In this document: piece after piece, positions 582 to 15,805 of the stretch
Layout: each line of letters opens with the position of its first letter
How positions within the stretch are numbered: position 1 is the first letter of the stretch
Assembly: GCA_035622635.1 (NCBI GenBank)
Contig: DASPUZ010000163.1
Span: forward strand, 4,813-68,812
Direction of reading: 5' to 3'
Length of the DNA: 64,000 nucleotides
Source: a bacterium
Lineage (GTDB): Bacteria > Sysuimicrobiota > Sysuimicrobiia > Sysuimicrobiales > Segetimicrobiaceae
Notes under the pieces: model-generated
Told to the model about the DNA's origin: nothing
What the model saw: only the letters and a program-made list of their open reading frames with translations
The model's database searches: none
Program-made: the position numbers and the translations under genes

Positions 582-658
582 TGGTCGGGGCGCCCGGACT
601 TGAACCGGGGACCTTCTGCTCCCAAAGCAGACGCGCTACCAAGCTGCGCTACGCCCCG
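582..658 (-). tRNA. tRNA-Pro (anticodon TGG), CCA encoded
   Basis: Reverse complement reads CGGGGCG-TA-GCGC-AGCTTGGTA-GCGC-G-TCTGC-TTTGGGA-GCAGA-AGGTC-CCCGG-TTCAAGT-CCGGG-CGCCCCG-A-CCA. This is a perfect cloverleaf with a 7-bp acceptor stem, GG in the D-loop, a TTCAAGT T-loop, anticodon loop T-T-TGG-G-A, and G37 as is typical of tRNA-Pro. Confidence 0.93.
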
Positions 659-1442: not shown

Positions 1443-2205
1443 TTACGGCCGCCCTCCGGCCATGACGCTATGAAGGCTCGTAGGGAATGCGAATGATGAG
1501 TACTTGCAACCGCTCTTCCACGAGTTGCGGGAGGCATCGGCAGACGCGTCAACTGGGAAGCAGTCCACCCGTGCGAAAAGTGCGTCGCGCACGGCAACGA
1601 CATCAACGAGCGGGAAATCGGGCTGAGTGTGCGGGTCATACTGCGCGTGGGGCGCGGCCTCGCTCATCCAGAGCAACACTCGTACGCCCGGCTTCCGGTG
1701 GCGCCTCGAGTATGCGCCGAACGTGTGGACAATGGCGTTGCGCGCAGCCCACCACTCACTGCGGCTCAACTCTCCCACTACGCCCAGCCGGTGCAGGTCA
1801 GAGTTTCGGCCAGACCGCGCACGGTACTGTCACCGGCCGGGTGCAGTTCGCAAGCCAGCCGATTCAACGCGGCCTCCGCCTCCGCGTACGTCGGGCGCTC
1901 GTACGCCCACTGCAACTCCGCCGCCACGCCCCCTGCTGGCCGGTCGAAAGATAGGGCGTGACCTCCTCCGCGTAATGTCTGGTGTTGTCGCCGAGCACTC
2001 CATTCACCATGCCAGGGACGCTTCCCCCATTTCTCAATGAACTCCCGCGGAGACTCGTGCGCGGCGCCCCGCGTGTCCGATGCACGTCCGCGAGAACGCA
2101 AGAGGAGGATTCCGGAAGAATTCGCCGGTACTGGCCATCGAACACACGAAGGTGATTGACAGCACTTTCAACCCCACCCATAATGCCCCCAACAACCGAA
2201 TAGTC
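1443..2205 (-). pseudogene. Decayed Mutator/IS256-like transposase remnant (C-terminal half, several frameshifts)
   Basis: Three minus-strand frames read successively ..SVVGGIMGGVESAVNHLRVFDGQ.., ..DVHRTRGAPRTSLR.., and ..AELQWAYERPTYAEAEAALNRLACELHPAGDSTVRGLAETLTCTGWA(stop, -1 shift)VVGELSRSEWWAARNAIVHTFGAYSRRHRK. This order matches the motif order I recall for Mutator-type transposases (DG..L..Av..vF / H..RN / A.t..eAe.aL..l / P.aa.sL.eGleEtLT / tTNaIEs). No intact ORF spans it. Confidence 0.4.
2156..2184 (+). promoter_or_regulatory. Sigma70-type promoter candidate for the riboswitch-led operon
   Basis: TTGACA (2156-2161), exactly 17 nt of spacer, then CATAAT (2179-2184). The predicted transcription start at ~2191-2193 lies ~10 nt upstream of the conserved leader AGTCAGCA. 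Confidence 0.5.
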
Positions 2206-2286
2206 AGCACCGCCTTCGAACGGGCAAACCCGAAGCAATTCGGGGACGCAAAGCCACGGGACCCTCAGGGTCGGCCGGGTTGCCGA
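2202..2286 (+). promoter_or_regulatory. c-di-GMP-I (GEMM-I) riboswitch aptamer, copy 1
   Basis: Reads ..CGGGCAAACC-CGAA-GCAA-TTCG-GGGACGCAAAGCC-ACGGGACCC-TCA-GGGTCGGCCGGGTTGCCG. This aligns block for block with the Vibrio Vc2 aptamer as I recall it (GGGCAAACC, hairpin with GNRA tetraloop, GGGACGCAAAGCC, second hairpin, GGGUUnCCG). P1b stem CCCGAA/TTCGGG is capped by GCAA (2235-2238). Confidence 0.85.
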
Positions 2287-2309
2287 AAAGGAGCCGGGTG
2301 TACGTTGCC

Positions 2310-2350
2310 GGGCACGGAGGCCGTTCTGTGGCATCTGTGCCCTTGTTTTA
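2310..2350 (+). terminator. Terminator-like hairpin in the expression platform of riboswitch 1
   Basis: GGGCACGGA (2310-2318) pairs with TCTGTGCCC (2334-2342), giving 9 bp with one G-U. The loop is 15 nt and the stem is followed by TTGTTTTAT. Confidence 0.5.
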
Positions 2351-2456
2351 TCCTCTGCGGCGTCCGCGCGTTGGCTCGCACCGCTCGTCCGATAGCACTG
2401 CCTGCGCACGACACTACGGGAACGTGCTCCAAAAAAACGAATTGGGGAGGCAACCC

Positions 2457-2708
2457 ATGAGCAGTCGGGTCAATCATCAGGAGATCGTCAAGAAGGCGCT
2501 CGATGCCAAGGCGGTGGATTTTGCGGCGATCGGGAAGGTGATCGCCGAGGTGGGGCCGGCGCTCGCGCTCGCCGATGACCCCGGGGACTTCTTCTGCGGT
2601 ACCATGCGGCATTTCGTGCACGTCTATTCCGTCCGTGTCGTCAACGACGGCAGTGCGGTGGAAGAGTTGGGGGCTCTCGGGCGGGTTGCCGCGGAATTGC
2701 GGTCATAG
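2457..2708 (+). CDS. Hypothetical small protein (83 aa), first gene behind riboswitch 1
   Basis: ATG at 2457 is preceded by GGGGAGG 6 nt upstream. Translation is MSSRVNHQEIVKKALDAKAVDFAAIGKVIAEVGPALALADDPGDFFCGTMRHFVHVYSVRVVNDGSAVEELGALGRVAAELRS. The TAG stop (2706-2708) is immediately followed by the GTG of the next gene. Confidence 0.6.
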   Translation: MSSRVNHQEIVKKALDAKAVDFAAIGKVIAEVGPALALADDPGDFFCGTMRHFVHVYSVRVVNDGSAVEELGALGRVAAELRS

Positions 2709-4031
2709 GTGGCGGCCATTCACGAGGACGCCGAGGCGAGCGCCGGTGCTTCCGATGTCAACGGAGCCCGGTGGGACTCCGAGGACTTGGTGCGCCGTCT
2801 CTGCTGGGCGCTTGATATTGCCGAGCGGGCGGTGGACCGGCTCGCCGCAGCCGGATATGCCGATCCGGATGAAGTTGGAAACCATCTTCGTCCCGAGAAG
2901 CTGATCGCCGAGACCGCGTTTCTGTTGCTCAGTGCTTCGACGGCCGGGCGGTATCCCGAGGTGGAGCGGCGTGTTCGGCGCGTGGCGGAGCGGTTGACCC
3001 CTCACGCCCGAAGCGAGCGCATGATTCTCGGGATCTGCCTGGAGCCGGCCCTGGCCCTCGATTACGCGGAGGCGCACATCTGCCTGGCGAGGCTCGGGTA
3101 CCCCGACGTACGCTTCGACGCCGCACTCCGCCGTAGCCTCGGCGCACAGGCGCACGCCAGCCGCGAACGCCCTCCCCACCGTGTTCTCGAGCAGGATTGG
3201 CTCATGAGCGGCTGGACCGGCGCGCGAGCCTGCCGCGCGGCGCGCAGCTCGCAGGCGGTGTGGAACTCGGCACTGGGCCGCTCGATCGATCTGCTCGGCT
3301 GCACCCGTGAGGACGTGTACGCCTTTACTCACGCTCTAATGTACGTGGCCGACCAGGACCTCCATCCCCGGCGGTTGCCGCGCCCGAAGCCGGTGATCCT
3401 TGAAGAGGCCGAAGCCGCTCTCGCTTGGTGCCTCGACGAGCAGGATTACGATCTGGGCGGGGAGGTTCTGCTTGCATGGCCGCTCGTCCGGAGGCCGTGG
3501 AGCGCGGGGGCAGCGTTCGCGTTTCGAGTGCTGGCGCACGTCGAGGACCAGGCCGGCTTTCTCCCCGCACCGAGTACCCGCCTGCAGCGCCTCAACGCGC
3601 TGCGGGGTGATGCGCGCATCAACTACCTTTTGGCAACGGCGTATCACACGGCATACGTGATGGGGATGCTGTGCGCTGCGGTCCTGCGATTCGGAAGAAC
3701 ACCCCCATCCAAGATCCCTCGGACCCTGGCGGCGCGGGGCAGCGCACACAGAATCCTCCCGCTCCTCGACGCAGACGGAATGCACCCTCACTGGCGCGGC
3801 GAGTTTGACCACCTCCGTGGTCCGGAGCAGGACGCGATTGCGGGCTTCCTGCTGGCCATCGCACTGCGCCGGAAGGTGGGCCGGCGAGACATTGCCGGTC
3901 TCCACGACGTCCTGGCCATGGGACTCAGCCTGGGCCTGGCGGATTCCCCTGCGGCAAGCCAGGCCGCGGAACTGTTGGAACGCCTCGCCGGGGCGGCTCC
4001 GGAGTTACCGGTGGCCGCAGGGCGGAGCTAG
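2709..4031 (+). CDS. Hypothetical protein (440 aa, helix-rich by composition, no TM or signal peptide seen)
   Basis: Long ORF in a coding-like frame, with its GTG start abutting the stop of the 83-aa gene. I cannot assign any family motif. Confidence 0.7.
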   Translation: MAAIHEDAEASAGASDVNGARWDSEDLVRRLCWALDIAERAVDRLAAAGYADPDEVGNHLRPEKLIAETAFLLLSASTAGRYPEVERRVRRVAERLTPHARSERMILGICLEPALALDYAEAHICLARLGYPDVRFDAALRRSLGAQAHASRERPPHRVLEQDWLMSGWTGARACRAARSSQAVWNSALGRSIDLLGCTREDVYAFTHALMYVADQDLHPRRLPRPKPVILEEAEAALAWCLDEQDYDLGGEVLLAWPLVRRPWSAGAAFAFRVLAHVEDQAGFLPAPSTRLQRLNALRGDARINYLLATAYHTAYVMGMLCAAVLRFGRTPPSKIPRTLAARGSAHRILPLLDADGMHPHWRGEFDHLRGPEQDAIAGFLLAIALRRKVGRRDIAGLHDVLAMGLSLGLADSPAASQAAELLERLAGAAPELPVAAGRS

Positions 4032-4039
4032 TCCCGAAG

Positions 4040-4122
4040 AGTCAGCATCCTTCGAAGGGGCAAACCCGAAGCGATTCGGGGACGCAAAGCCATGGGACCC
4101 ACGAGGTCAGCCGGGCTGCCGG
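4040..4122 (+). promoter_or_regulatory. c-di-GMP-I (GEMM-I) riboswitch aptamer, copy 2 (intercistronic)
   Basis: Reads AGTCAGCATCCTTCGAAGGGGCAAACC-CGAA-GCGA-TTCG-GGGACGCAAAGCC-ATGGGACCC-ACGA-GGTCAGCCGGGCTGCCGG. It has the same blocks as copy 1. The tetraloop is GCGA (still GNRA). In the second hairpin, C2257:G2273 of copy 1 is replaced by T4093:A4109. It starts 9 nt after the stop of the 440-aa gene. Confidence 0.85.
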
Positions 4123-4147
4123 AGGGCACGAGCACAAAGGGAACACG

Positions 4148-4190
4148 GACGCGAGCAACTGTGACGGTGCGCTCGCGTCTTGCTTTCTTG
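4148..4190 (+). terminator. Intrinsic terminator-like hairpin in the expression platform of riboswitch 2
   Basis: GACGCGAGC (4148-4156) pairs perfectly with GCTCGCGTC (4171-4179) around a 14-nt loop. The stem is followed by TTGCTTTCTTG. Confidence 0.6.
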
Positions 4191-4222
4191 CTGACCCAAT
4201 TCGAATAAAGGGGGAAACTCAC

Positions 4223-6361
4223 GTGACGGACAACAGCGCCCAGAACCCCGTTTCACGGATCGGCAACCCGCCCGCGAAGGTTGACCTCACGAAATTACCG
4301 CCCGAGCGGGCCCGAGCGTCTTTTCGTGCGCTCATTCTCGCCAATCCCAACTACTTCGGAAACGTGACCGGCAGCCAATTCAAACCCGTCTTGAACATCG
4401 TTTCCGACACGACATACGAGGAGCTGCACTGTGTGGGATTCCAGCCCGCGCTGAACCGGCTGGAGGCCGTGGTCCACGTCAACCAGTCGACGGGGTATGG
4501 CGGCGACGTGTGCTCGAGCGGGTCGCGGGAGTACGTTCGCTTCTACCTCTCCTACGACAACGGCGCCACCTGGCAAGACCAGGGGTCGGTGAGCTTCGCG
4601 GTCTACGACGTGCCAGGGAACAAGCCGCTCGAATATGCTGCCACACTGGAACTCCAGCCCCCGCCGGCGGAGAAGCTGTGCTTCATTCAGAACCTCCCGA
4701 AAGTCAGGGCGATCCTCTCCTGGAACAACGATCCGCCTCCAAACACTCCGGCCTTTACGCCGGTGTGGGGCAACGTAGTGGATGCGCACATCCAGATCGA
4801 AGGGCTCGACCTGATCGTACTGGCCGACGTGCTGCAGGAGGCCAACGTCAGCCTGCCGATCGAGCTCGCCTCGTCGATCGACCTGTCGCAGAGCGTTCAC
4901 ACCGCCAAGGCAAAGGCGCTGAGCGCGGGTGAGTTGGTCGCTCTCTACCAGGGGACCAAGGTGCCATCGCACCGCTTCCTGTTCGCCGAGTTCCAGCAAC
5001 TCCTGGCCCACCCGCCGTTGACCCAGACCTTGATGACGGCAACGCCGTCATTGCCGCTGGCCGGGCTCGGCGTCAATGTCGGGGACGCGGTGGCCGGGCT
5101 GCTTGGCACGAGCGGCGACACCACGTACGAGGAGCTGGACTGCGTCGGGCTCGACTTCAATCGGGACGCGGTGGTGGGCGTGCTGAAGGTCAAGCAGCCC
5201 GGGGGCTATCTTGGCGGCCCGTGCACGGCCGGGAGCCAGGAGTATGTGGCGTTCTGGGTCGACTGGGGGGATGGCAAGGGGTGGACCTATGCGGGGACCG
5301 CGTCGGTCTCCGTTCACGACTTCAGCAGTATTCCGCTGGACGGCCTTGAGTACTCTGTGTATCTCCCCGTTGATATCGTCAGCCACATGCAACCGTGCGG
5401 CAGCGGGGCCAAGACGGCGCGTGTGCGCGCCATCCTTTCCTGGGAGACACCGCCGCCGCCGAGTAATCCAGACTACGTGCCGGTGTGGGGGAACCGGGAC
5501 GACACGTTGGTTCTCGTCCGGCCCGGGACCGCGCCCACCGCGTGCATGGCCAATATCAGCATCATCGGCGGGATCGGCATCGGCCAGATCGACACCGGCA
5601 GCACGGGATACACGGTGCCGAACGCGCTCTTTGCGCTCCAGGGCACCCCTGCCGATCCCTGGGTTCCCGCCCGGCAGTGCCCGTTTGGAGCCCGGATTGT
5701 CATTCAGGGATATCCGTGCGTCGGATACAAGTATCGCGTCAAAGTCAGGGACGTCACGGCCGGCGGGCTCCCGATCATATTGACCGATCAGATTTGGACG
5801 GTGGACAACAACGGCAACGGGACGTGGCGGAGTCCAGACGGGAGTGGGTTCTTCACGTACGTGGGTACGAGCGACAACATCGACAATGTCCTGGCCTACT
5901 GGGATTCCTCCGGCGACGATCTGTGGGAAGTCATGCTGGAGCTCGCGGACGCCAGCGACAACGTGCTCAACTGGACGCCCCAGTACCGAGTCCAGTTGGA
6001 CAACACCGCGCCCATCGCTGCAATCCACATCGATAGCGGCGGTGATTGCAAGCAGTTTACGGCGGGCGCCACGATCAACGGCCACTTCGTGGCGCAGGAC
6101 GCGAACTTCGGCGTGTTCGGGCTGAGCACGCTCCCGGCCTCCGTGAATCCCAATGAACCCACCACCGCCACGCCGGCGACATCGGAAACGGCGCCCTCGC
6201 CGGGTAACCCTTGGCAACTCAACACCGACACTCCCGACGAGATGCCGCCGTGCGGCTATGTCGTACACCTGGATGTGTGGGACCGGTCCATCCTGAACAG
6301 CGCTCCCGGTAACCACAACTACAATTCAGCCGACGTGGGCTTCTGCTTGCTGATCTCCTAG
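4223..6361 (+). CDS. Hypothetical protein (712 aa) with internal duplication of a ~130-aa domain
   Basis: GTG start is preceded by AAAGGGGGAA. Residues ~62-193 and ~299-433 share DTTYEEL.CVG, GY.GG.C..GS.EYV.F, LEY, (A)RVRAILSW..PPP..P...PVWGN. No signal peptide or TM segment; the C-terminal ~270 aa are Gly/Asn/Asp/Thr-rich (beta-like). Confidence 0.8.
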   Translation: MTDNSAQNPVSRIGNPPAKVDLTKLPPERARASFRALILANPNYFGNVTGSQFKPVLNIVSDTTYEELHCVGFQPALNRLEAVVHVNQSTGYGGDVCSSGSREYVRFYLSYDNGATWQDQGSVSFAVYDVPGNKPLEYAATLELQPPPAEKLCFIQNLPKVRAILSWNNDPPPNTPAFTPVWGNVVDAHIQIEGLDLIVLADVLQEANVSLPIELASSIDLSQSVHTAKAKALSAGELVALYQGTKVPSHRFLFAEFQQLLAHPPLTQTLMTATPSLPLAGLGVNVGDAVAGLLGTSGDTTYEELDCVGLDFNRDAVVGVLKVKQPGGYLGGPCTAGSQEYVAFWVDWGDGKGWTYAGTASVSVHDFSSIPLDGLEYSVYLPVDIVSHMQPCGSGAKTARVRAILSWETPPPPSNPDYVPVWGNRDDTLVLVRPGTAPTACMANISIIGGIGIGQIDTGSTGYTVPNALFALQGTPADPWVPARQCPFGARIVIQGYPCVGYKYRVKVRDVTAGGLPIILTDQIWTVDNNGNGTWRSPDGSGFFTYVGTSDNIDNVLAYWDSSGDDLWEVMLELADASDNVLNWTPQYRVQLDNTAPIAAIHIDSGGDCKQFTAGATINGHFVAQDANFGVFGLSTLPASVNPNEPTTATPATSETAPSPGNPWQLNTDTPDEMPPCGYVVHLDVWDRSILNSAPGNHNYNSADVGFCLLIS

Positions 6362-6382
6362 TCATAGGCGGGTGCGTTTCCC

Positions 6383-6415
6383 GAGGAGGGCTCTCCCGTT
6401 GGGCGAGCCCTCCTC
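6383..6415 (+). terminator. Strong hairpin just after the 712-aa gene (terminator candidate, no U-tract)
   Basis: GAGGAGGGCTC (6383-6393) pairs perfectly with GAGCCCTCCTC (6405-6415), giving an 11-bp stem with an 11-nt loop. It begins 22 nt after the stop codon. Confidence 0.45.
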
Positions 6416-6536
6416 CACAAAGGAGCGCTCTTTCGCGGAGCGACAGCCCAACTGGAACCCATTGCAGGGCAACAATTTCCGCACGACGGCCTCTTGAAGG
6501 CCGCCAGAAAGAGGCCCCCCTCGCTCCCGCGGATCA

Positions 6537-6730
6537 GTGACAGGGTCGTGGCGCTCCTCACGCACCTGCAGGTCAGCGGTGCGAGATCGCGCACCCTGGA
6601 ACACCGTCGCATGGGCTCGGCGCGCTCACCAGCGTCCTCGACAACGCCGATCCCGACGCGCTGACACGTCCGAATCTCGTTGCATTCTTGGAGACGTTTC
6701 AGCTCAGCCGGCCTGCGGCCGCTGGAGGGT
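6537..6730 (+). pseudogene. Possible integrase N-terminal remnant (frameshifted)
   Basis: Two adjoining frames give ..ALLTHLQVSGARSRTLEHRRMG / LGALTSVLDNADPDALTRPNLVAFLETFQLSRPAAAG. This parallels the spacing of FLLQKQVGGCSARTMGTYRWWLDRIA....DLDTLGITTYLAKL in the integrase at 1-395. It is short, and no catalytic domain follows. Confidence 0.3.
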
Positions 6731-7091
6731 TCGCGTTCAGCTTCCACTCATCAAAGGACCGGCCCGGAAGACCGCGGTTGGCTGTCGTCAGGTCGAGCGG
6801 TCACGAACTCTTTTGCCCGCCACACCCCCCTTTCGCTCCCGCCCATCGCGCACGACAGTGTGGGAGTTGTTAGTGTCTGTACACCGCGGATTTTGGTCCT
6901 ACCACAAGATATAAAGCACATGTCGAAAGGAGGTGCTATGCGGTGCCCGCGCGTCTGTTGACCCGCAGGAACTGGCTCGCCGTGTCCGGGTGGCACTTGG
7001 AAGACGAGCCGGCAGACAGCGGTGCGGCGGGCGATCGCCTCTCTGCTGACCGGCCGGGACGGCGACGGGCTACAGACGATCGAGTGGAAGA

Positions 7092-7853
7092 TCAAGCTCG
7101 CGCGCGTCGATCGCAGGCGATGCGAACGAACGTCACCAGAATGCGCGTAGCCGCGAGCACCGTACCACGAACCGTTCCGGACACCTTTGAGGTGCCGCCG
7201 GCGCGGCGGCGATGCGCGACGGGGACTTCCAGGATTCGAAGGCCTGCGGCCGCAGCGCGCATCTGCATCTCCAGGTTCCAGCCGTAGGTCTGCTCTCGCA
7301 TGGCCAGCCGTCTGAGCGCGTCCCGGCGGATGGCACGAAACGGGCACATGTCCGTGTACGGGACCCTGTACAGCCACCGCACGAGAAACCCGATCATGCG
7401 ACCGGCGACCAGCTGGGAGAGGCTCATGCTGCCGCGTTCGCGCAGCCCGCGGGTGCGCGAGCCAACGACGAAATCGTAGCGGCCGGCGGCGATCGGTGCC
7501 ACCAACTGGGCCATCAGTTCCGGACGATCACTTCCATCCCCGTCCAGGAACACGATGATCTGGCACGCGGGATCGACGGCCCCTGCGCCGGTGCGGCACG
7601 CCCGCCCGTACCCCCGGTGCGGCTCTCGCACGACGCGCGCCCCGGCGCCGCTCGCGCGGTCGGCGGTCGCGTCTCCGCTGCCATTGTCGACGACGATCAC
7701 TTCACGCGCGACCTCACGCGGCACGGCGGCGACCACCTGGGCGATCGCCGCTTCTTCATTGAGCGCAGGGACGACGACCGACACCCAGGCGTCGCGGCTC
7801 GGACTGCCGCTTGCCGGCGCTGCGGCGTACACACTACTACTGCGCCACCACAC
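7092..7853 (-). CDS. Family 2 glycosyltransferase (dolichyl/polyprenyl-phosphate sugar synthase-like)
   Basis: Motifs VSVVVPALNEE, VVDNGSGDAT, FLDGDGSD, and PFRAIRR near the end. The start is taken as GTG 7853, overlapping the epimerase stop; GTG 7832 is an alternative. Confidence 0.8.
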   Translation of the reverse strand: MWWRSSSVYAAAPASGSPSRDAWVSVVVPALNEEAAIAQVVAAVPREVAREVIVVDNGSGDATADRASGAGARVVREPHRGYGRACRTGAGAVDPACQIIVFLDGDGSDRPELMAQLVAPIAAGRYDFVVGSRTRGLRERGSMSLSQLVAGRMIGFLVRWLYRVPYTDMCPFRAIRRDALRRLAMREQTYGWNLEMQMRAAAAGLRILEVPVAHRRRAGGTSKVSGTVRGTVLAATRILVTFVRIACDRRARA

Positions 7854-8979
7854 GCTGCACAATCCCCCTCGCGCGCAATACCGACTCGGTGGCCGCAAAG
7901 TAGTCACGTACGTCGGCCTGCGCTCGAATCCAGTCGAGATACCGCCCCAGGCCCACGGTCAGGTCCGTTCGGGGCACATATCCGGCCGCGCGCGCCCGGG
8001 AGATGTCAGCGACCAGATGACGGATCTCCCCCGGTCGAAACTCGCCGCGCATCACCGGACTCAGCCGGATCCCCAGCGCGTCCGAAAGCACGCGGCACAA
8101 CTCGCTGATGCTGGTCGCGACGCCGCTTCCTACGTTTACCGGGAGCCCATCCCACGCGCTGGACGTCGCTGCGAGCAAGTTCGCCTCCGCAATGTCTTCG
8201 ACGAAACAGAAGTCACGCGTCTGCGCGCCGTCCTCGTAGAGCACGGGCGGCTGCTGAGCCAGCAGACGCGTGCAGAAGATGGCGATGACTCCGGTGTAGG
8301 GATTAAAGATGGATTGGCGGGGGCCGTATGTGCATGAATACCGCAACGCGACGGCCGGGATGCCCGTGTGTCGCGCCCACGTCAGCACCAGTCGTTCCTG
8401 CGCGACTTTGCTGATCGCGTACGCCGTCTCGCCGCTCAGCGGCACGTCTTCCCGTGTCGGGACGGACGTCACCGGCCCATCGCAGCGGGGGCAGTGCACC
8501 GCAAAGTCGCCGCGGCGTAACTGCACGAGCGGCCTCACGGGTGGAAAGACCGTGCCGTGCCGCGGGCACTCGGCGGCGCCCTCCGGGTAGACGACCTGTG
8601 AGGATGCCACGACCACTTTCTTGACGGGCAACTTTCGATCGCGGATCAGCTCCAGCAACTGCGCGGTTCCGGACGCGTTCACCTCAACGTATTTGGCCAG
8701 CTCGGGCATGAATCCACCGTACGCCGCCTCATGGAACACGACGTCGATGTCTTGCAGCGCCGCAGTGACGGCGGCGCGATCCCGCACGTCCGCGTGGATG
8801 AACTCGGCGGCGCCGGGCACCCAAGCGGGCTTCCCGTGCGGATGTGTCTGCGGCTCCAGGTTGTCGAGAATGCGGACGGCCCAGCCGTCACGCAACAGCC
8901 GGTCCGCGATGTGCGACCCGATGAGACCAGCCCCGCCCGTCACGAGGGCCCGCCGGCCGCGCTGCCCGTCGCTTCTCAT
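7837..8979 (-). CDS. NAD-dependent epimerase/dehydratase (extended SDR) with a Cys/His-containing insertion
   Basis: Rossmann motif VTGGAGLIGSH and catalytic YAISK. An inserted segment ECPRHG...VHCPRCDG lies between the Ser and Tyr regions. The start ATG directly follows the TGA of the upstream gene. Confidence 0.85.
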   Translation of the reverse strand: MRSDGQRGRRALVTGGAGLIGSHIADRLLRDGWAVRILDNLEPQTHPHGKPAWVPGAAEFIHADVRDRAAVTAALQDIDVVFHEAAYGGFMPELAKYVEVNASGTAQLLELIRDRKLPVKKVVVASSQVVYPEGAAECPRHGTVFPPVRPLVQLRRGDFAVHCPRCDGPVTSVPTREDVPLSGETAYAISKVAQERLVLTWARHTGIPAVALRYSCTYGPRQSIFNPYTGVIAIFCTRLLAQQPPVLYEDGAQTRDFCFVEDIAEANLLAATSSAWDGLPVNVGSGVATSISELCRVLSDALGIRLSPVMRGEFRPGEIRHLVADISRARAAGYVPRTDLTVGLGRYLDWIRAQADVRDYFAATESVLRARGIVQRVVAQ

Positions 8980-10362
8980 TCACATCTCCCTTCCAGCGAA
9001 CGCCGGCCCGTCGGCGCGTGGCCGGTAGCGACCGGGCCGCCACGCTCTTGGGCAGACGCGCGGCGCGAGCGCCAGCAGCGCAAACGGCACGTACAGGGCC
9101 ACGTCGAACGACAGCATTTCGTCGTTGATGCCGAAGAACGGACGATACCACAGCGCTGAGAACAACCACGTCGTCGCGGCTGTCAAATAGAGGAGCGAGA
9201 CGGTGGGGGTAAGGGCCAGGAACAGCGCGAGCCACCCGAAGTACCACAGGTAGTGGGTGGAGATGAGCACGATAAACGCCGTCGCCAGCAGACCGGCGTG
9301 GCGGACGTCGCCGAGCGCCGTACGGTCCCGCTCGCGCCACACACGTATCGCGATCACGAGGAGTGCGACGAGCGCAGCGCCGACGTAGGCCAATGTGGGC
9401 ACGGTGACGCCGGCGAGCCGCGCGACGTCGAGGAGGAAGAAACGATCGCCGCTGACCAGCCCTTCCTCCTGCGCATAGCCGGGCAGGAACCCGATGAGCC
9501 CCGTGCCGGCGCCCAGGTAGGGCAGATAGCCTGCAATCACGGTCGCCCCTAACGCGAGCGGCATGATTCTGTCCCCGCGACGATACAGCGCCGGGAACAG
9601 AAAGGCCGGATACCATTTCACGAGGATCGCGCACCCGAGCGCGACACCGGTGAGCGCCTCCCAGCGGCGAACATGAGCGAACAGCGCTACGGCGACAAAG
9701 GCGATCGCCGCCGCATCGACGTGGCCCGCCCCCGCGTACTGCCACAGCACGAGCGGGTTCCACGCGTAGAGCAGTACCCGGTCGCGGGGCAGGCCGAGGC
9801 AGCCGAGCGTGAGGGTGAGCATCCACACGGCCGCGGCCTCGAACGCTACCATCCCGGTTTTCATCCCGGTGACGGTGTCGCTGACCCGCGTGATGGCGAG
9901 AAAGATCATTTGCCCGACGGGCGGATAGATCGTGTGCGCGTAGGTTCGGCGGTTGATGTGTGGGTAGATGGTCGCGTCGCGCAAGCGCGCGAGCGCCGGG
10001 TCGGCCGGGACGTACCGGTAGGGATTGATGCCGACCGCCTGCACGCGCCCATCCCAGACATAGCGGTACACGTCGTCTGAGAACTGAGGCGGCATGAGCA
10101 GGAGTGGCACCCGGCACAGGATTCCGACGAGCAGAATCAGCCCGAGCCCCATGCGGCCGCTGCGGGATCGGAGGATGGTCCAAGCTGCGCCCAGAAACAG
10201 CACGGCCTGCACGAATGCCAAGGCTTGCAGGGCAAAGATATCTCGCACGGGCGCCCACAGCGGATAGAGATACGATCCCACTGTCAGCGCGCCAAGCATC
10301 GCCAGGACGGTCGTGGCGGTCAAGCCACGGGGTCGTCCGCTCTGCGCCGCCGCGACCGTCAC
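8980..10362 (-). CDS. Polytopic membrane protein, GT87/DUF2029-like glycosyltransferase
   Basis: Many TM helices. The segment FSDDVYRYVWDGRVQAVGINPYRYVP and the later YPP..Q / LVKWYP motifs are typical of polyprenol-phosphate-sugar dependent GT-C enzymes. GTG 10362 overlaps the upstream TGA (GTGA). The Arg-rich first ~300 codons of the long ORF are rejected. Confidence 0.7.
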   Translation of the reverse strand: MTVAAAQSGRPRGLTATTVLAMLGALTVGSYLYPLWAPVRDIFALQALAFVQAVLFLGAAWTILRSRSGRMGLGLILLVGILCRVPLLLMPPQFSDDVYRYVWDGRVQAVGINPYRYVPADPALARLRDATIYPHINRRTYAHTIYPPVGQMIFLAITRVSDTVTGMKTGMVAFEAAAVWMLTLTLGCLGLPRDRVLLYAWNPLVLWQYAGAGHVDAAAIAFVAVALFAHVRRWEALTGVALGCAILVKWYPAFLFPALYRRGDRIMPLALGATVIAGYLPYLGAGTGLIGFLPGYAQEEGLVSGDRFFLLDVARLAGVTVPTLAYVGAALVALLVIAIRVWRERDRTALGDVRHAGLLATAFIVLISTHYLWYFGWLALFLALTPTVSLLYLTAATTWLFSALWYRPFFGINDEMLSFDVALYVPFALLALAPRVCPRAWRPGRYRPRADGPAFAGREM

Positions 10363-11168
10363 GGTGGAAGCCGACTGCCGGCCGCGTGCAGCGGCCAGAT
10401 CCGCTTCGGATCGCGCCGCAGCAACCCCCGGAGAAACTGTCGGCTGTGGGGCGCGCCGTAGCCCGGTCGCATACCGGTCGCCTCGTCGTCGGCGAACAAC
10501 TCCTCGCACAGGCGCACCAGGCTGGGCCCGTCGTCCACGTCGTACCAGCGGGGCAACAGCTCGACGTCCAGGCCGAGCTCCCGCGCCCGAGCGATCGTCT
10601 CCGCCAGCACCCGGTCCGTGCTCCACGCGATGTCCGCAAACAGCTCGGGGCGGGATCGCGTCAGCCCGATGAGATAGTAGCCGCCGTCGTCGGCCGGCCC
10701 GAGCACCATGCGCTCGCCGGGCCGTGCGAGCGCGGCGGCGGCGTCGGCGAGCGCAGCCGAAGGCAGTGTGGGACTGTCTGAATCGATGAGGCACGCAGAC
10801 GCGTACCCGGCCGCAAGCAGGTCCGCGACGCCACTCGCGAGCCGGTCGCCAAAACCGTCGCCTCGCTGCGGGACGAGCCGAAAGCTGCGCGGGAGCAACT
10901 CGGACAACTGCGGTTCCGTCCCTACCGGTGTATAGACCGCGACGCCGGCGCACGCGTCCGCGGCGCTCACGGCGGCGATGTTGTCGGCGGTGTCCCTGAG
11001 GAACGCGGTGTGCAGGCCGGCCGCTTCCTCGAACGTCAGCGGCGGGACCAGCCGCGTCTTCACGTGGCGCGGTCTGGGCACCTTCGTCATGATGGCAAGC
11101 GCGCACGCGGCGGCCACCGAGGCGGGCCGCCCGATCGCCGAGATCCGGTGCGTCGGCGCGGGCGTCAT
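10359..11168 (-). CDS. DUF2064-type glycosyltransferase-like protein
   Basis: Reads AIMTKVPRPRHVKTRLVPPLTFEEAAGLHTAFLRDT...CLIDSDSPTLP...GPADDGGYYLIGL...WSTDRVLAETI. This is the pattern I associate with DUF2064 (CofC-like nucleotidyltransferase fold). The ATG overlaps the upstream stop (ATGA at 11165-11168). Confidence 0.75.
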   Translation of the reverse strand: MTPAPTHRISAIGRPASVAAACALAIMTKVPRPRHVKTRLVPPLTFEEAAGLHTAFLRDTADNIAAVSAADACAGVAVYTPVGTEPQLSELLPRSFRLVPQRGDGFGDRLASGVADLLAAGYASACLIDSDSPTLPSAALADAAAALARPGERMVLGPADDGGYYLIGLTRSRPELFADIAWSTDRVLAETIARARELGLDVELLPRWYDVDDGPSLVRLCEELFADDEATGMRPGYGAPHSRQFLRGLLRRDPKRIWPLHAAGSRLPP

Positions 11169-12733
11169 TGGACGTGTGCCACCACGCGATGATACCCGGT
11201 CGCGCCTTCGGGCGCGGAACGCCGCACCCGAGGCGTCTGAACGGCGCCGGTGCCGTCGATGGCGCGCACGGCAAGCCGGTACTCGCCCGCCTGACGCGGG
11301 GTCCACGTCAGGGTCCACAGGACCCAGGCGAGCCGCGATCCGCGATAGGCGAGCCCGGCGTCTCCCCACGTGGCGCCGTCGTCGGTGCTCACTTGGACTC
11401 GATCGACCCCGCGATCGCCGGCGAACGCGATTCCTTTCAACAGCACCGCGGCGCCGAGGGGTATCGGCGTCGCGAAGTCCGGCGCATCGAAGCGGGCCAT
11501 CGTGTGCAAGACAAAGTCCGGGCCCCAGCCCTGCGTCTCATAGAAGCCTTTGGCGCCGTGATCGACGAGCTCGATGCGGGTCACCCATTTGACGCTCTTT
11601 TCGCCGACCAGACCGGGCACGATCAATCTGGCCGGGTATCCGTGGCGCGGCGGAAGGGGCACCCCGTTCATCTGGTAGGCGACCAGCGTGGTCTCAGTCA
11701 TCGCTTTTTCCAACGGGATCGTATCCGTGTACCCATCGACCCCGTGACACACGACGTCCCGCACGGTCGCCCCCGGGCCGGCCGTCGCGAGCAGGGTCCT
11801 GAGCGGCACACCGGTCCACATCGCGTTGCTGATCAGCCCCGCCCCCACGCCATTGCTGATGCACTCCAACGTTGTTTCCTGCGCCACTGCGGGAAGGGCG
11901 CTCAAATCCTCGAACCGATAGGTCCTCGGGCGCTGCACCGAACCCGTGATTTCGAGACGCCACAAGCTCCGCTCGGGCCACGGGTCAATGTTGTTCTTTG
12001 TCACGACGTAGAAGCGTTCGTTAGGAGTGAACCGCTGGATGTCGGGGTCTCGATACTGCGTGCCGTCGTACGCGTACGCCGCCCGCCGGTACGCGGCGCG
12101 CAGATACGCGCCCACCCCCACGGCCGCGACGAGACCGGCGGCGGCCACCAGGAGCGCGCGCCGACCCTCGCTGCGTGGGGCCGCCATCGGCTCGCGCGCA
12201 TTGTACGGCACGGCGACGAGGAACCAACACAACCCTCGGAGTACGAGGCCGTAGACCGCATACGATACAAGAAGCCCCACCGCCGTGGCAACCGCCGCCG
12301 TCCCGAGGGGGAGCCCGCTGTAGTTGGTCCCAAGGTTTGGCCAGAGTGCGGCCACAGACACGAGCCACAGGGCGACGACAAACGCGGAGAGAACACGATC
12401 GGCCCGGCGACGCGCGGACGTCTCCGGCCTCGGCGTCCGCCTATGCGTGAGGATCAGGATGTACGCTGCGCCGACGATCGCGCCCACGACGAAGAGCCCA
12501 GCGAGCACGCCGCCGACCCCGAGCTGTTTGAGCTGATTGTATCCTCCAACACGCGCCAAGAGTTCGAGAAAGTACCACACGCCCAGGAACGGGGCGACGC
12601 GGTCGCCGACCAGCTCTGGGAGGGTCGCGACGCCCCAGGCGAAGCGCAAGCTGAGCATGACGAGCATCGTGACAAGCGCGGCGACGCTGCCGGCGAGCAT
12701 GCCGCCGAGTGCAGCCTTCAATTGATGCATCAT
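11165..12733 (-). CDS. Molybdopterin-dependent oxidoreductase (sulfite-oxidase fold) fused to an N-terminal ~5-6 TM domain
   Basis: The C-terminal half has RFYVVTKN, TLECISNGVG (Mo-ligand Cys context), YQMNGVPLPPRHGYPARLIVPG..G.KSVKWV, and then an Ig-like dimerisation-type domain. The N-terminal 220 aa are hydrophobic helices. Confidence 0.8.
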   Translation of the reverse strand: MMHQLKAALGGMLAGSVAALVTMLVMLSLRFAWGVATLPELVGDRVAPFLGVWYFLELLARVGGYNQLKQLGVGGVLAGLFVVGAIVGAAYILILTHRRTPRPETSARRRADRVLSAFVVALWLVSVAALWPNLGTNYSGLPLGTAAVATAVGLLVSYAVYGLVLRGLCWFLVAVPYNAREPMAAPRSEGRRALLVAAAGLVAAVGVGAYLRAAYRRAAYAYDGTQYRDPDIQRFTPNERFYVVTKNNIDPWPERSLWRLEITGSVQRPRTYRFEDLSALPAVAQETTLECISNGVGAGLISNAMWTGVPLRTLLATAGPGATVRDVVCHGVDGYTDTIPLEKAMTETTLVAYQMNGVPLPPRHGYPARLIVPGLVGEKSVKWVTRIELVDHGAKGFYETQGWGPDFVLHTMARFDAPDFATPIPLGAAVLLKGIAFAGDRGVDRVQVSTDDGATWGDAGLAYRGSRLAWVLWTLTWTPRQAGEYRLAVRAIDGTGAVQTPRVRRSAPEGATGYHRVVAHVQ

Positions 12734-15257: not shown

Positions 15258-15638
15258 CTATCGCACCTCGAAGGACGTACTGAGGGTCCCTTCTCTTGAC
15301 CCAAGTGAACAGCGCGCTTGTATCGGCCACGTTCCCGGAGTGGTGCGGCTCCCGACCAGCCACGTCCAACTTACGATACCGCCGCTGTCAGCTGCCTTGG
15401 GCGTCAGACCTTGCGCACGGCTGGGCCCGGATTTGTAGAACACGGTGATGTCGCAAGTGGCGTGCGGCGCAGTCCGGATTGCGATGCTTGCGGTGTTGCC
15501 GTGATTCACGGGAGATGTCAGCGATACCACTGTGATTAGCACCGGCTGTTGAGCTAGAGCAGTTCCCGATGTCAAGAGAAGCACGGTCAGCACCAAGAAA
15601 AGACACGGACGTGCCCGTCGTGAAATCCTCTTCGCCAT
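15258..15638 (-). CDS. Small secreted hypothetical protein (126 aa)
   Basis: Internal Met gives MAKRISRRARPCLFLVLTVLLLTSGTALAQQ, a classic signal peptide with an AxA site. The mature part is beta-like and contains 2 Cys. Confidence 0.55.
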   Translation of the reverse strand: MAKRISRRARPCLFLVLTVLLLTSGTALAQQPVLITVVSLTSPVNHGNTASIAIRTAPHATCDITVFYKSGPSRAQGLTPKAADSGGIVSWTWLVGSRTTPGTWPIQARCSLGSREGTLSTSFEVR

Positions 15639-15805
15639 GACGAGCCACCCCGGAGGTTGACCGTCTCGCCAGCAACGACGTGGCTTCTTCGAAGCGCGTC
15701 GTCGCCCGTGTCTCACCGGTGTGAAGACGTGCGGCGCCGCCCCGCGCTTCCGCGGCCCACCCGTCACATCCCTTCCTCGCCCGCGCCGGACTTCAGCGGC
15801 GCGCG

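Follow-up and report, generated by a model that had tools for sequence, protein, structure and literature searches.

Within the 64,000-nucleotide stretch of DNA analysed here (hereafter the window), an open reading frame on the forward (+) strand at positions 4223 to 6361 encodes a protein of 712 amino acids (76 kDa, pI 4.55). The preliminary description of this locus took it to be a real gene, and our analysis agrees. Its GTG start codon at 4223 is the earliest possible in-frame start, and the frame cannot be extended in the 5′ direction; the Shine-Dalgarno-like sequence AAAGGGGGA lies 7-8 nt 5′ of the start, so that ribosome-binding site and start codon together occupy positions 4207 to 4225 (+). 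A perfect 11-bp hairpin without a U tract, recognised by reading the sequence, follows 22 nt past the stop codon (6383 to 6415, +), and may mark the transcript end or act as a stabiliser.

The genes and RNA elements that precede this reading frame are all on the same strand. A sigma-70-like promoter, TTGACA-17-CATAAT, is located at 2156 to 2184 with 11 of 12 consensus matches, and is the only promoter-like site that a sigma-70 consensus scan returned between positions 1800 and 7000. It is followed by a c-di-GMP-I-type aptamer at 2214 to 2288 (aptamer 1; Rfam RF03167, 61.6 bits, E=4e-12), whose expression platform at 2310 to 2351 reads as a terminator-like hairpin, GGGCAC...GUGCCC, followed by UUGUUUUAU; this hairpin is present in minimum-free-energy folds. 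Next comes an 83-aa reading frame that lacks a family match and has the ribosome-binding site GGGGAGG (2457 to 2708), translationally coupled to the gene for a 440-aa DUF6895 protein (2709 to 4031; PF21836, E=2e-46). A second aptamer begins 18 nt past the DUF6895 stop codon (aptamer 2, 4050 to 4124; RF03167, 61.4 bits), and is ~90% identical to the first in an alignment that includes ~15 nt of leader. Aptamer 2 ends 98 nt 5′ of the GTG, in the 5′ leader and in sense orientation. Its expression platform at 4148 to 4192 is intrinsic-terminator-like, with a perfect 9-bp stem, GACGCGAGC/GCUCGCGUC, and then UUGCUUUCUUGCU, and this GC-rich hairpin with its U-rich tail appears in all near-optimal folds. 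A search of the platforms of the window aptamers, meant to tell an ON from an OFF switch, returned no competing anti-terminator structure within 6 kcal/mol.

Both aptamers can be placed in the c-di-GMP-I riboswitch clan (CL00126), because their scores of 61.4 and 61.6 bits (E ~4e-12) lie above the RF03167 gathering score of 59, and because aptamer 2 reads in the sense direction within the 5′ leader and is followed by an expression platform ahead of the reading frame, as expected of clan members. The window aptamer also shares the conserved core GGCAAACC...GGGACGCAAAGCC with c-di-GMP-I riboswitches. Although Rfam assigns the window match to RF03167, the 'GGC' variant, the G that defines this variant is an A here. 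The variant consensus reads GACGCGAAG, whereas both window aptamers read the canonical GACGCAAAG (in aptamer 2 the canonical A falls within GACGCAAAGCC), and we therefore reject assignment to the variant class. The column that discriminates RF01051 from RF03167 is one that we take to be A47 of the Vc2 structure, the ligand-intercalating position. Judged by sequence, c-di-GMP would be the ligand of both window aptamers.

The preliminary description had placed the 712-aa gene under its own aptamer. The aptamer is real (61.4 bits), but the sigma-70 consensus scan gave no promoter-like site between it and the upstream gene. The promoter at 2156 probably drives the whole array of aptamer 1, the 83-aa frame, the DUF6895 gene, aptamer 2 and the 712-aa gene. 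From this arrangement we infer both the extent of the transcript and an operon structure, in which a transcript from the 2156 promoter would probably pass two near-identical aptamers in series, with the 712-aa gene as its distal cistron. Because an aptamer of the c-di-GMP-I type and then an intrinsic terminator precede this gene, we propose that c-di-GMP gates its transcription. The known targets of c-di-GMP-I (GEMM-I) riboswitches include surface and matrix proteins, for example in Vibrio and Clostridioides. The window gene resembles such genes in having a sense 5′-leader aptamer, a terminator-type platform and a non-enzymatic, beta-rich product. It differs in that the 712-aa protein is unrelated in sequence to the characterised targets and carries neither a signal peptide nor a sorting motif, and in that two ~90% identical aptamers follow one another, separated by two genes. 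Since the riboswitch and the folds are both standard, the system is not categorically new.

No Pfam or NCBIfam model matches the 712-aa protein, and the earlier remark that its repeated domain could not be recognised was thus justified. Searches against PDB sequences with phmmer and hmmsearch gave only chance-level matches (E≥0.25), and membership in a defence or phage protein family was rejected because no PADLOC or PHROG match was obtained at E≤0.1. The internal duplication, for which 35-40% identity had been estimated by eye, is confirmed: in a BLASTP alignment of 148 aa (E=3e-29), residues ~50-193 are 36% identical to residues ~287-433, and hhalign matches profiles of the two domains, each built from 12 homologues, with a probability of 100% and E=3e-40 over 138 columns. 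The second domain (B) is an ancient duplicate of the first (A), and the duplication has been kept in every aligned homologue.

An AlphaFold2 model of the full-length protein (pLDDT 89) consists of a short helical N-terminal module, two paralogous beta-sandwiches split by a helical linker, and two Ig/Fn3-like domains. The conserved helical module (4280 to 4375, +; LPPExAR...LLLANPNYFGN) is preceded by a variable, disordered tail. Domain A, a beta-sandwich of residues ~52-196 (4376 to 4810, +), holds the invariant cysteines C70, C97 and C153 together with an Asp-box-like SxDxGxTW loop. The linker comprises residues ~197-288 (4811 to 5086, +), and its helical character, first suggested by eye, is reproduced by the model, in which about residues 197-295 are helical (helices 200-294, pLDDT 54-92). 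Domain B, the paralogue of A, spans residues ~289-436 (5087 to 5530, +) and contains the invariant C307, C334 and C392. The remaining residues, 437-712 (5531 to 6358, +), form two tandem Ig/Fn3-like beta-sandwiches modelled with a pLDDT of 96.4, so that the tail region singled out in the preliminary description is all-beta in the model over the C-terminal ~275 aa; the motif DNTAP marks the start of the second sandwich, and C486, C609, C677 and C708 are invariant in the pair. The whole protein has 12 cysteines, an even number, of which 10 are invariant among the aligned homologues, and invariant polar and cysteine-containing loops include GGxCSxGSxEY, QCPFG and IDSGGDCK.

Foldseek searches of the PDB, with either the whole model or residues 437-712, matched only generic multi-Ig, Fn3, S-layer and matrix proteins, at TM-scores that are low and generic to any Ig-like array. 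The matches include SbsC, Deinococcus radiodurans HPI (TMq 0.36), the Fn3 domains of CbhA (TMq 0.32), RbmA and alpha-2-macroglobulin-type arrays. For both queries, no enzyme fold is among the PDB matches listed. The C-terminal 276 aa superpose on Vibrio cholerae RbmA, Geobacillus SbsC, D. radiodurans HPI and Clostridium thermocellum CbhA with E values of 1e-5 to 4e-4, a likeness at the level of fold only (7-14% identity, TMq ≤0.36). A further difference is that these four proteins are exported by known routes. As modelled, the only folded units of the 712-aa protein besides its helical segments are binding-type beta-sandwiches, and it would be a non-enzymatic binding or structural protein.

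The gene had been called an orphan, a status that is ruled out by homologues across many phyla. Among the candidates tested, 2,467 proteins are related at E≤1e-3, and relatives are encoded in 544 of 599 pattern-matched stretches from a collection of species-representative genomes. Clustering of relatives at 50% identity gives 1,088 groups, of which 434 reach E≤1e-30, and query coverage is mostly 96-100% among the top 120 homologues listed. At least eight bacterial phyla are represented, including Acidobacteriota, Nitrospirota, Chloroflexota, Cyanobacteria, Planctomycetota, Proteobacteria and Verrucomicrobiota, as are archaea of the Nitrososphaerota. Judged by sequence comparison, then, the 712-aa protein is a member of a very large, uncharacterised family that is unnamed in Pfam and NCBIfam and annotated everywhere as 'hypothetical protein'. 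The family is large and ancient, its architecture does not vary, ten of its cysteines are invariant, and it has members also in ammonia-oxidising archaea. It is a solid case for a new DUF entry and merits characterisation. Massilia sp. TWP1-3-3 and Microseira wollei NIES-4236 are cultivable carriers of homologues.

The pairing of an aptamer with a gene of this family recurs in two genomes of Candidatus Brocadia, where the aptamers (489-602 of locus L019 and 7090-7209 of locus L056) lie 5′ of homologues and the homologue is the nearest same-strand gene. Both Brocadia aptamers also read GACGCAAAG, matching the RF01051 consensus. Such pairings are rare (3 of 163 loci). Rfam models run on 22 loci, and a fuzzy regular expression and nhmmer run over all 162 homologue loci, gave aptamers only in L019 and L056, so that a c-di-GMP aptamer is not common to the family at large. 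The 83-aa/440-aa gene pair, whose conservation the preliminary description suggested checking, is not linked to the family either, since it adjoins none of the 162 homologue loci.

A different signal appears in the Acidobacteriota. The ECF-type motif TGAAACG-N16-CACTA occurs within 400 nt 5′ of the family gene in 28 of 162 loci, and exact copies number 55 in 3.5 Mb against 0.21 expected. The 28 copies differ in spacer sequence, and the motif is also found 5′ of sigma and anti-sigma genes. In 17-25 loci the family gene adjoins genes for a sigma factor, an anti-sigma factor, a 281-aa protein and a TPR-CHAT protein; neither the motif nor the sigma, anti-sigma and TPR-CHAT genes are present in the window. 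The acidobacterial setting resembles ECF sigma/zf-HC2 anti-sigma modules that have a TPR-CHAT protease as partner, in that the family gene carries the bipartite motif of the sigma and anti-sigma genes and adjoins the gene for the TPR-CHAT protein. The arrangement has a conceptual parallel in the Craspase-Csx30-RpoE logic of type III-E systems, from which it differs in that the acidobacterial module contains no CRISPR component. That the CHAT protein cleaves the anti-sigma factor is a conjecture. The family would thus be wired to lineage-specific signals, with c-di-GMP serving here and an ECF sigma-factor promoter in Acidobacteriota. The aptamer before the 712-aa gene, in a pairing that recurs in anammox Brocadia, offers one regulatory handle on the family; the sharply defined ECF motif, with its sigma/anti-sigma/TPR-CHAT module, offers a second. 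Taken together, the two handles put the family forward as an output gene under signal control in bacteria of soil and wastewater that are abundant but little studied.

Where such an output would act depends on the location of the protein. The preliminary description noted the lack of a Sec/Tat signal and of a transmembrane segment, and this is borne out by the lack of a hydrophobic N-terminus and by a maximum 19-residue Kyte-Doolittle mean of 1.39. A hydropathy scan combined with reading of the sequence revealed no signal peptide, lipobox, transmembrane anchor or wall-sorting motif, and on these grounds we reject the identification of the 712-aa protein as a Sec/Tat-exported adhesin or S-layer protein. 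The same holds for most of the family, as ~95% of 177 representatives lack a signal peptide, lipobox or transmembrane segment. Six of the 177 have Sec-type signal peptides directly N-terminal of the conserved module. About seven representatives carry an N-terminal PG_binding_1-type module (confirmed by Pfam in P0158, P0173 and P0185, the rest recognised by eye), and others have ComEA-like HhH, transthyretin-like or C-terminal lamin-tail domains. Signal peptides are missing from the fusions with PG_binding_1 and HhH as well, and some of these are archaeal; archaea lack peptidoglycan. Some family loci adjoin genes for GGDEF-REC proteins, L,D-transpeptidases or DUF1360 membrane proteins. The neighbourhood is not conserved outside Acidobacteriota, and the two closest NCBI homologues have radical SAM, sedolisin, trypsin-like peptidase and tyrosinase neighbours that are not common to both loci.

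We favour the interpretation that the 712-aa protein is a signal-regulated binding or scaffold protein of the cell envelope or extracellular matrix, to which we give a probability of roughly 45%, with location and binding both inferred. Following a variable tail, it would present the helical NPNYFGN module, sandwich A, the ~100-aa helical linker, sandwich B and the Ig/Fn3-like pair in that order, and in most lineages family proteins would reach their envelope or matrix site without a Sec signal. Hints of an envelope role come from the Sec-type signals and PG_binding_1-type modules of a few representatives, from the GGDEF-REC, L,D-transpeptidase and DUF1360 neighbours, and from the even number of cysteines. 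Against it stand the missing signals of most members, fusions that are signal-less and in part archaeal, the rarity of aptamer pairings, the generic fold matches and the variable neighbourhood outside Acidobacteriota. The protein may instead be cytoplasmic. The absence of signal peptides from the 712-aa protein and from ~95% of representatives, the basic, Lys/Ala-rich N-terminal tails of many members, the HhH DNA-binding fusions of archaeal ones, and the occurrence of the family in Bacteria and Archaea alike would all be consistent with a cytoplasmic scaffold, sensor or nucleoid- or polymer-associated binder. Each repeat domain, moreover, has three invariant cysteines, an odd number, and the ten invariant cysteines might bind metal or sense redox state rather than form disulfides. 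Nevertheless, we judge this alternative somewhat unlikely. The six representatives with clear Sec-type signals before the conserved module argue against it, as do the N-terminal PG_binding_1 and C-terminal lamin-tail fusions and the presence of Ig/Fn3, GEVED-like and Asp-box elements, all typical of extracytoplasmic proteins. In addition, the functions controlled by ECF sigma factors and by c-di-GMP riboswitches are mostly those of the envelope or surface.

A broader form of the envelope or matrix interpretation is doubtful. The family might be a previously unrecognised, cross-domain matrix or envelope 'glue' that is released mostly without Sec, by a holin/lysis-type or other route, and is placed under a different switch in each lineage. 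If so, exchangeable N-terminal modules would anchor the proteins to polymers, with basic tails and HhH for eDNA and PG_binding_1 for murein; the switch would be a c-di-GMP riboswitch here and in anammox Brocadia, and a proteolytic ECF sigma/TPR-CHAT switch in Acidobacteriota. The family would then serve soil and wastewater bacteria generally as an output of the programme by which they settle or aggregate.

Release by lysis or holins would also suit an origin in a mobile element or virus, from which a capsid-, fibre- or tailocin-like structural protein was domesticated. The spread of the family over Bacteria and Archaea is patchy and its gene stands mostly alone. The basic N-terminal arm ahead of the paired beta-sandwiches, N-terminal PG_binding_1 modules that, like those of phage endolysins, have no signal peptide, and a gene for a DUF1360-like small membrane protein directly downstream in 15 loci could be read in the same way. 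The closest homologue of the 712-aa protein is 61% identical, whereas relatives of a housekeeping protein encoded in the window reach 82-84%. However, we consider a viral origin improbable, since the PHROG and PADLOC searches gave no match, the 50 best PDB fold matches listed include no capsid or tail, and phage genes do not recur in family neighbourhoods. The base composition of the gene is also native at the codon level. Its GC content of 0.636, noted early on as lower than that of its neighbours, is indeed the lowest among the long reading frames, which average 0.68 (sd 0.019) across the window, but the hint of foreign origin drawn from it does not stand: GC3 (0.833) is level with the window mean (0.821, sd 0.069), and the deficit lies in GC1 (0.607) and GC2 (0.468), both low because of amino-acid composition. 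Composition therefore gives no sign of foreign DNA, and a horizontally acquired island gene was rejected for want of codon-level deviation. Least probable of all is an enzyme with its active site in the Cys/His/Asp-rich loops, whether glycan- or peptide-modifying or a thioester- or isopeptide-forming adhesin domain, because the many invariant polar residues and cysteines of the loops and the sedolisin, trypsin-like peptidase and tyrosinase neighbours (single loci each, not conserved) are set against plain beta-sandwiches in every domain and the absence of a catalytic family from Pfam, NCBIfam, PDB sequence and PDB fold searches.

A more distant resemblance concerns domain B. GEVED (PF20009) is a domain of the stalk type that occurs in fibrillar adhesins like CshA (PMC10952558). 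The GEVED model (gathering threshold 24.4 bits) does not match the 712-aa protein, and finds nothing at E≤10 among its closest domain sequences (12 of domain A and 12 of domain B), so that membership was rejected. Proteins with GEVED are fibrillar adhesins that are secreted through Sec and anchored to the wall, and the present family differs in having three invariant cysteines per domain. Only three distant homologues touch the model, in the region of domain B: P0103 (25.8 bits) and P0118 (27.0 bits) lie just above the threshold, and P0110 also has a match. They and GEVED have in common a 'W-x-D-W/N-x-D-G' loop and a G-x-V-x-D-like motif at the C-terminal end (WGNVVD). A remote homology of domain B to GEVED is therefore possible.

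The protein of 712 amino acids encoded at window positions 4223-6361 on the forward strand had been described preliminarily as an orphan, but this status is rejected by database searches. At E≤1e-3, a homology search that scored 8,000 candidates yielded 2,467 proteins, and the best 120 of these are 44-61% identical to the query and nearly all full length. An exhaustive phmmer search of 1.84 billion cluster representatives recovered 1,088 clusters (50% identity) at E≤1e-3, with 434 of them at E≤1e-30. In a one-genome-per-species collection, relatives are encoded by at least 544 among the 599 pattern-matched stretches listed, where named carriers include Acidobacteriota, Nitrospirota, Chloroflexota, Cyanobacteria, Planctomycetota (Ca. 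Brocadia), Methylomirabilota, Gemmatimonadota, Verrucomicrobiota, Bacteroidota/Ignavibacteria and Proteobacteria. Archaeal members with an N-terminal helix-hairpin-helix (HhH) were deposited as Candidatus Nitrosocaldus and Nitrososphaerales archaea, and one relative resides on a 2.25-Mb Nitrososphaerota MAG chromosome. The source annotation reads "hypothetical protein" or is taken from the fused HhH, and the 712-aa protein has no match among Pfam, NCBIfam, PADLOC or PHROG models. It is a riboswitch-linked new member of a conserved hypothetical family rather than an orphan or a new kind of system, and this family, both large and ancient, has an invariant architecture and is entirely uncharacterised.

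The reading frame extends from its first possible start, a GTG codon with AAAGGGGGA 7-8 nt on its 5′ side, to the stop, and cannot be extended upstream. Its product is an acidic protein of 76 kDa (pI 4.55) with 12 cysteines. The duplicated Cys-containing domain first recognized by eye is borne out by alignment: residues 41-215 match residues 281-460 with 36% identity over 148 aa (BLASTP E=3e-29), and profiles of the two repeat domains, A and B, each made from segments cut from 12 homologues, align with an hhalign probability of 100% (E=3e-40, 38% identity, 138 columns). Each domain carries three invariant cysteines (C70/C97/C153 in A and C307/C334/C392 in B), and four others (C486, C609, C677 and C708) are invariant in the C-terminal half. 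The profile match implies that the duplication is older than the divergence of the family, and the duplication is present in all 37 aligned members.

An AlphaFold2 model of the full-length protein, based on the 37-sequence alignment (mean pLDDT 89, pTM 0.85), begins with a disordered tail (residues 1-19) and two short helices around an LPPExAR...LLLANPNYFGN motif, in which most positions are invariant or nearly so. These are followed by beta-sandwich A (residues ~60-190), a helical linker (~197-295), beta-sandwich B (~300-432) and a beta-rich C-terminus, in agreement with the linker and the Gly/Asn/Asp/Thr/Trp-rich region noted previously. Residues 437-712 modelled alone form two consecutive sandwiches (pLDDT 96.4). 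The protein is thus predicted to be built of standard beta-sandwich folds, and Foldseek searches of the PDB with the whole model or its C-terminal half gave no specific and no catalytic match. The whole model retrieved alpha-2-macroglobulin-type and other Ig arrays at TM≤0.17, and the C-terminal half retrieved beta-galactosidase Ig domains, scFvs, cadherins, V. cholerae RbmA, the S-layer proteins SbsC and D. radiodurans HPI (TMq 0.36) and CbhA Fn3 modules (TMq 0.32). Sequence searches of the PDB returned chance-level matches only.

The repeated domain, which the first inspection did not recognize, indeed lacks a Pfam or NCBIfam match in the 712-aa protein. An Asp-box-like SxDxGxTW loop occurs in domain A of 11 of 12 sequences, under the Pfam threshold. 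In three distant homologues, whose identity to the 712-aa protein is 46-50%, domain B matches Pfam GEVED (PF20009), barely exceeding the cut-off of 24.4 bits in P0103 (25.8) and P0118 (27.0), with the match in P0110 being on record. GEVED was defined as a stalk-type domain of CshA-like fibrillar adhesins, where it is always found together with the ligand-binding NR2 domain (PMC10952558). Neither the 712-aa protein nor its 24 closest domain sequences match GEVED even at E≤10, and the link is read as a possible remote relationship rather than as membership.

The preliminary description also remarked on a low GC content and took it as a hint of foreign origin. The gene is indeed less GC-rich (0.636, about 2.3 sd under the mean of 0.68, sd 0.019, for long ORFs of the window), but the hint does not hold: GC3 is 0.833 versus a window mean of 0.821 (sd 0.069). 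Because the deficit is confined to GC1 (0.607) and GC2 (0.468), it stems from amino acid composition, and reflects a protein rich in Asn, Asp, Thr and Tyr rather than foreign codon usage. The housekeeping G6PD of the window has relatives at 82-84% identity, versus 61% for the best relative of the 712-aa protein, a gap that gives a weak hint of patchiness. Transfer RNA genes are common integration sites, and one for tRNA-Pro (UGG) lies at 582-658 (-), ~1.5 kb upstream of the first aptamer described below; GC3 reveals no island signature near it.

Two aptamers match Rfam RF03167 (c-di-GMP-I-GGC, gathering score 59): aptamer 1 at 2214-2288 (61.6 bits) and aptamer 2, the one previously noticed ahead of the 712-aa gene, at 4050-4124 (61.4 bits). 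The GGC-variant label should not be taken at face value. At the variant-defining position, which we take to be A47 of the Vc2 aptamer, intercalating between both guanines, the RF03167 consensus has GACGCGAAG and the canonical RF01051 consensus has GACGCAAAG. Both aptamers read GACGCAAAG and thus retain the canonical base, so the expected ligand would be c-di-GMP. Within the c-di-GMP-I clan the riboswitch is unexceptional, and two serial aptamers with genes between them are a minor variation. A terminator-like element follows each aptamer: after aptamer 1, a GGGCAC...GUGCCC hairpin at 2310-2342 and then UUGUUUUAU, and after aptamer 2, a perfect 9-bp stem (GACGCGAGC/GCUCGCGUC) at 4148-4179 and then UUGCUUUCUUGCU. 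These hairpins are present in all near-optimal folds, and no competing anti-terminator was found among the predicted folds. The aptamer regions (2197-2292 and 4033-4128) share about 90% identity across ~95 nt, with ~15 nt of leader included, and the sequences up- and downstream are unrelated. Identity limited in this way suggests that the riboswitch, and not a promoter, was recently duplicated within the genome.

Directly before aptamer 1 is a strong sigma-70-like promoter (TTGACA-17-CATAAT, 2156-2184), which is the only such site in 1800-7000. With its own terminator hairpin, aptamer 1 would control an 83-aa ORF (2457-2708) translationally coupled to the gene for a 440-aa DUF6895 protein (2709-4031), and aptamer 2 starts 18 nt past the DUF6895 stop codon. 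In the simplest reading, both aptamers may therefore lie on one transcript running from the promoter through aptamer 1, the 83-aa ORF, DUF6895 and aptamer 2 to the 712-aa ORF, which would place the distal gene behind two c-di-GMP checkpoints. Alternatively, the 712-aa gene may have an internal, non-consensus promoter. The 83-aa protein has no family match. A 2026 review refers to an epimerase of the DUF6895 family whose substrate is a lasso peptide (reference 371 in PMC13352647), and the pair could therefore be a peptide-modification module under c-di-GMP control. It is not a conserved neighbor of the family, as it adjoins none of 162 homologue loci.

Aptamers at homologue loci were surveyed by Rfam on 22 loci and by fuzzy regex and nhmmer on all 162 (1.75 Mb). 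By these searches c-di-GMP aptamers are rare, being found only in two Ca. Brocadia genomes, at 489-602 of locus L019 and 7090-7209 of locus L056, with the family gene (starting at 1098 and ~7893, respectively) being the next same-strand ORF of at least 120 aa after a leader of 0.5-0.7 kb. The pairing of aptamer and family gene is thus seen again in a phylum to which the window organism is unrelated. Locus L056 (Ca. Brocadia carolinensis) has a third c-di-GMP-I aptamer (RF01051, 53.9 bits) at 15559-15652 (-); it lies about 5.5 kb downstream of the family gene, which is on the other strand. A Terriglobia MAG (L005) has four tandem Acido-Lenti-1 RNA motifs (RF01687, 38-53 bits) at 12132-12452 (-), about 2 kb downstream of its family gene.

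Another mode of control is seen in Acidobacteriota. At 17-25 loci, the family gene adjoins genes for an ECF-type sigma factor, an anti-sigma factor of the zf-HC2 type, a TPR-CHAT protein of ~900 aa and a 281-aa protein that matches no family, in orientations that differ among loci. The exact motif TGAAACG-N16-CACTA, which is absent from the window, occurs 55 times in 3.5 Mb searched versus 0.21 expected. At 28 different loci, one copy lies upstream of the family gene at a distance of no more than 400 nt, with unlike spacer sequences (L010, L011, L013, L015, L016, L022, L049, L059, L064, L065, L069, L077, L083-L085, L096, L098, L099, L107, L128, L130, L131, L139, L142, L146, L149, L152 and L156); the 12 with a record title are all Acidobacteriota, and the other 16 are metagenome contigs. 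The motif looks like an ECF-type promoter, and copies of it also stand ahead of the sigma and anti-sigma genes and of an operon for unknown proteins of 286, 303 and 248 aa. Such an arrangement is characteristic of an autoregulated ECF regulon, and we consider it a candidate acidobacterial regulon that includes the family gene and the TPR-CHAT protein. Elsewhere the family gene is essentially free-standing, with occasional neighbors encoding a REC-GGDEF diguanylate cyclase (3 loci) or an L,D-transpeptidase (5 loci), and with a small DUF1360-like membrane protein encoded directly downstream at 15 loci. Three regulatory links, namely the c-di-GMP aptamer in two phyla, the ECF/TPR-CHAT module of a third phylum, whose promoter motif is sharply defined, and the occasional GGDEF neighbors, converge on one uncharacterised protein and render its function experimentally approachable.

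Inspection of the 712-aa protein reveals no lipobox and, as first described, neither a signal peptide nor a TM helix or LPXTG motif, and mean Kyte-Doolittle hydropathy reaches at most 1.39 over any 19 residues. A signal peptide is likewise missing in about 95% of 177 full-length representatives, as would be expected if the family comprised cytoplasmic binding or redox proteins, the main rival explanation. However, six of the 177 (P0123, P0135, P0156, P0157, P0200 and P0260) have textbook Sec-type signal peptides, each directly ahead of the conserved ER..F..L...NPNYFG module. Moreover, every recognisable domain type of the family is normally found outside the cytoplasm. About seven representatives have an N-terminal PG_binding_1-type module (three by Pfam and four by eye), combined in two of them with a lamin-tail domain at the C-terminus. 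Transthyretin-like or ComEA-type HhH modules occur in other representatives. The three Pfam-supported examples (P0158, P0173 and P0185) are metagenomic, extremely acidic proteins with PG_binding_1 from residue 9 and no signal peptide, ending in a lamin-tail domain (P0158, P0173) or an Asp/Gly/Ser/Glu-rich tail (P0185); their composition suggests halophiles. The variable N-terminal modules of the family (a basic Lys/Ala-rich tail, HhH or PG-binding) look like polymer anchors. ECF sigma factors and c-di-GMP riboswitches typically control envelope and surface functions. Together, the Sec-bearing members, fused modules and regulator types favor a binding or scaffold protein of the envelope or matrix that is induced by a signal and would, in most lineages, leave the cell by a non-Sec route. 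We assign this a probability of about 0.45-0.5; a cytoplasmic role is somewhat less probable.

On the 3′ side of the 712-aa gene, ~730 nt (6362-7091) have no convincing ORF and no Rfam match, and near their start is a perfect 11-bp hairpin without a U tract (6383-6415). Beyond lies an ORF cluster on the reverse strand (7092-11369). By eye only, its 271-aa ORF resembles a glycosyltransferase, its 380-aa ORF, with a Rossmann-type N-terminal motif, a sugar epimerase or dehydratase, its long hydrophobic ORF a membrane glycosyltransferase, and its 336-aa ORF a nucleotidyl- or glycosyl-transferase. If these assignments are correct, an envelope glycan cluster adjoins the riboswitch-controlled genes.
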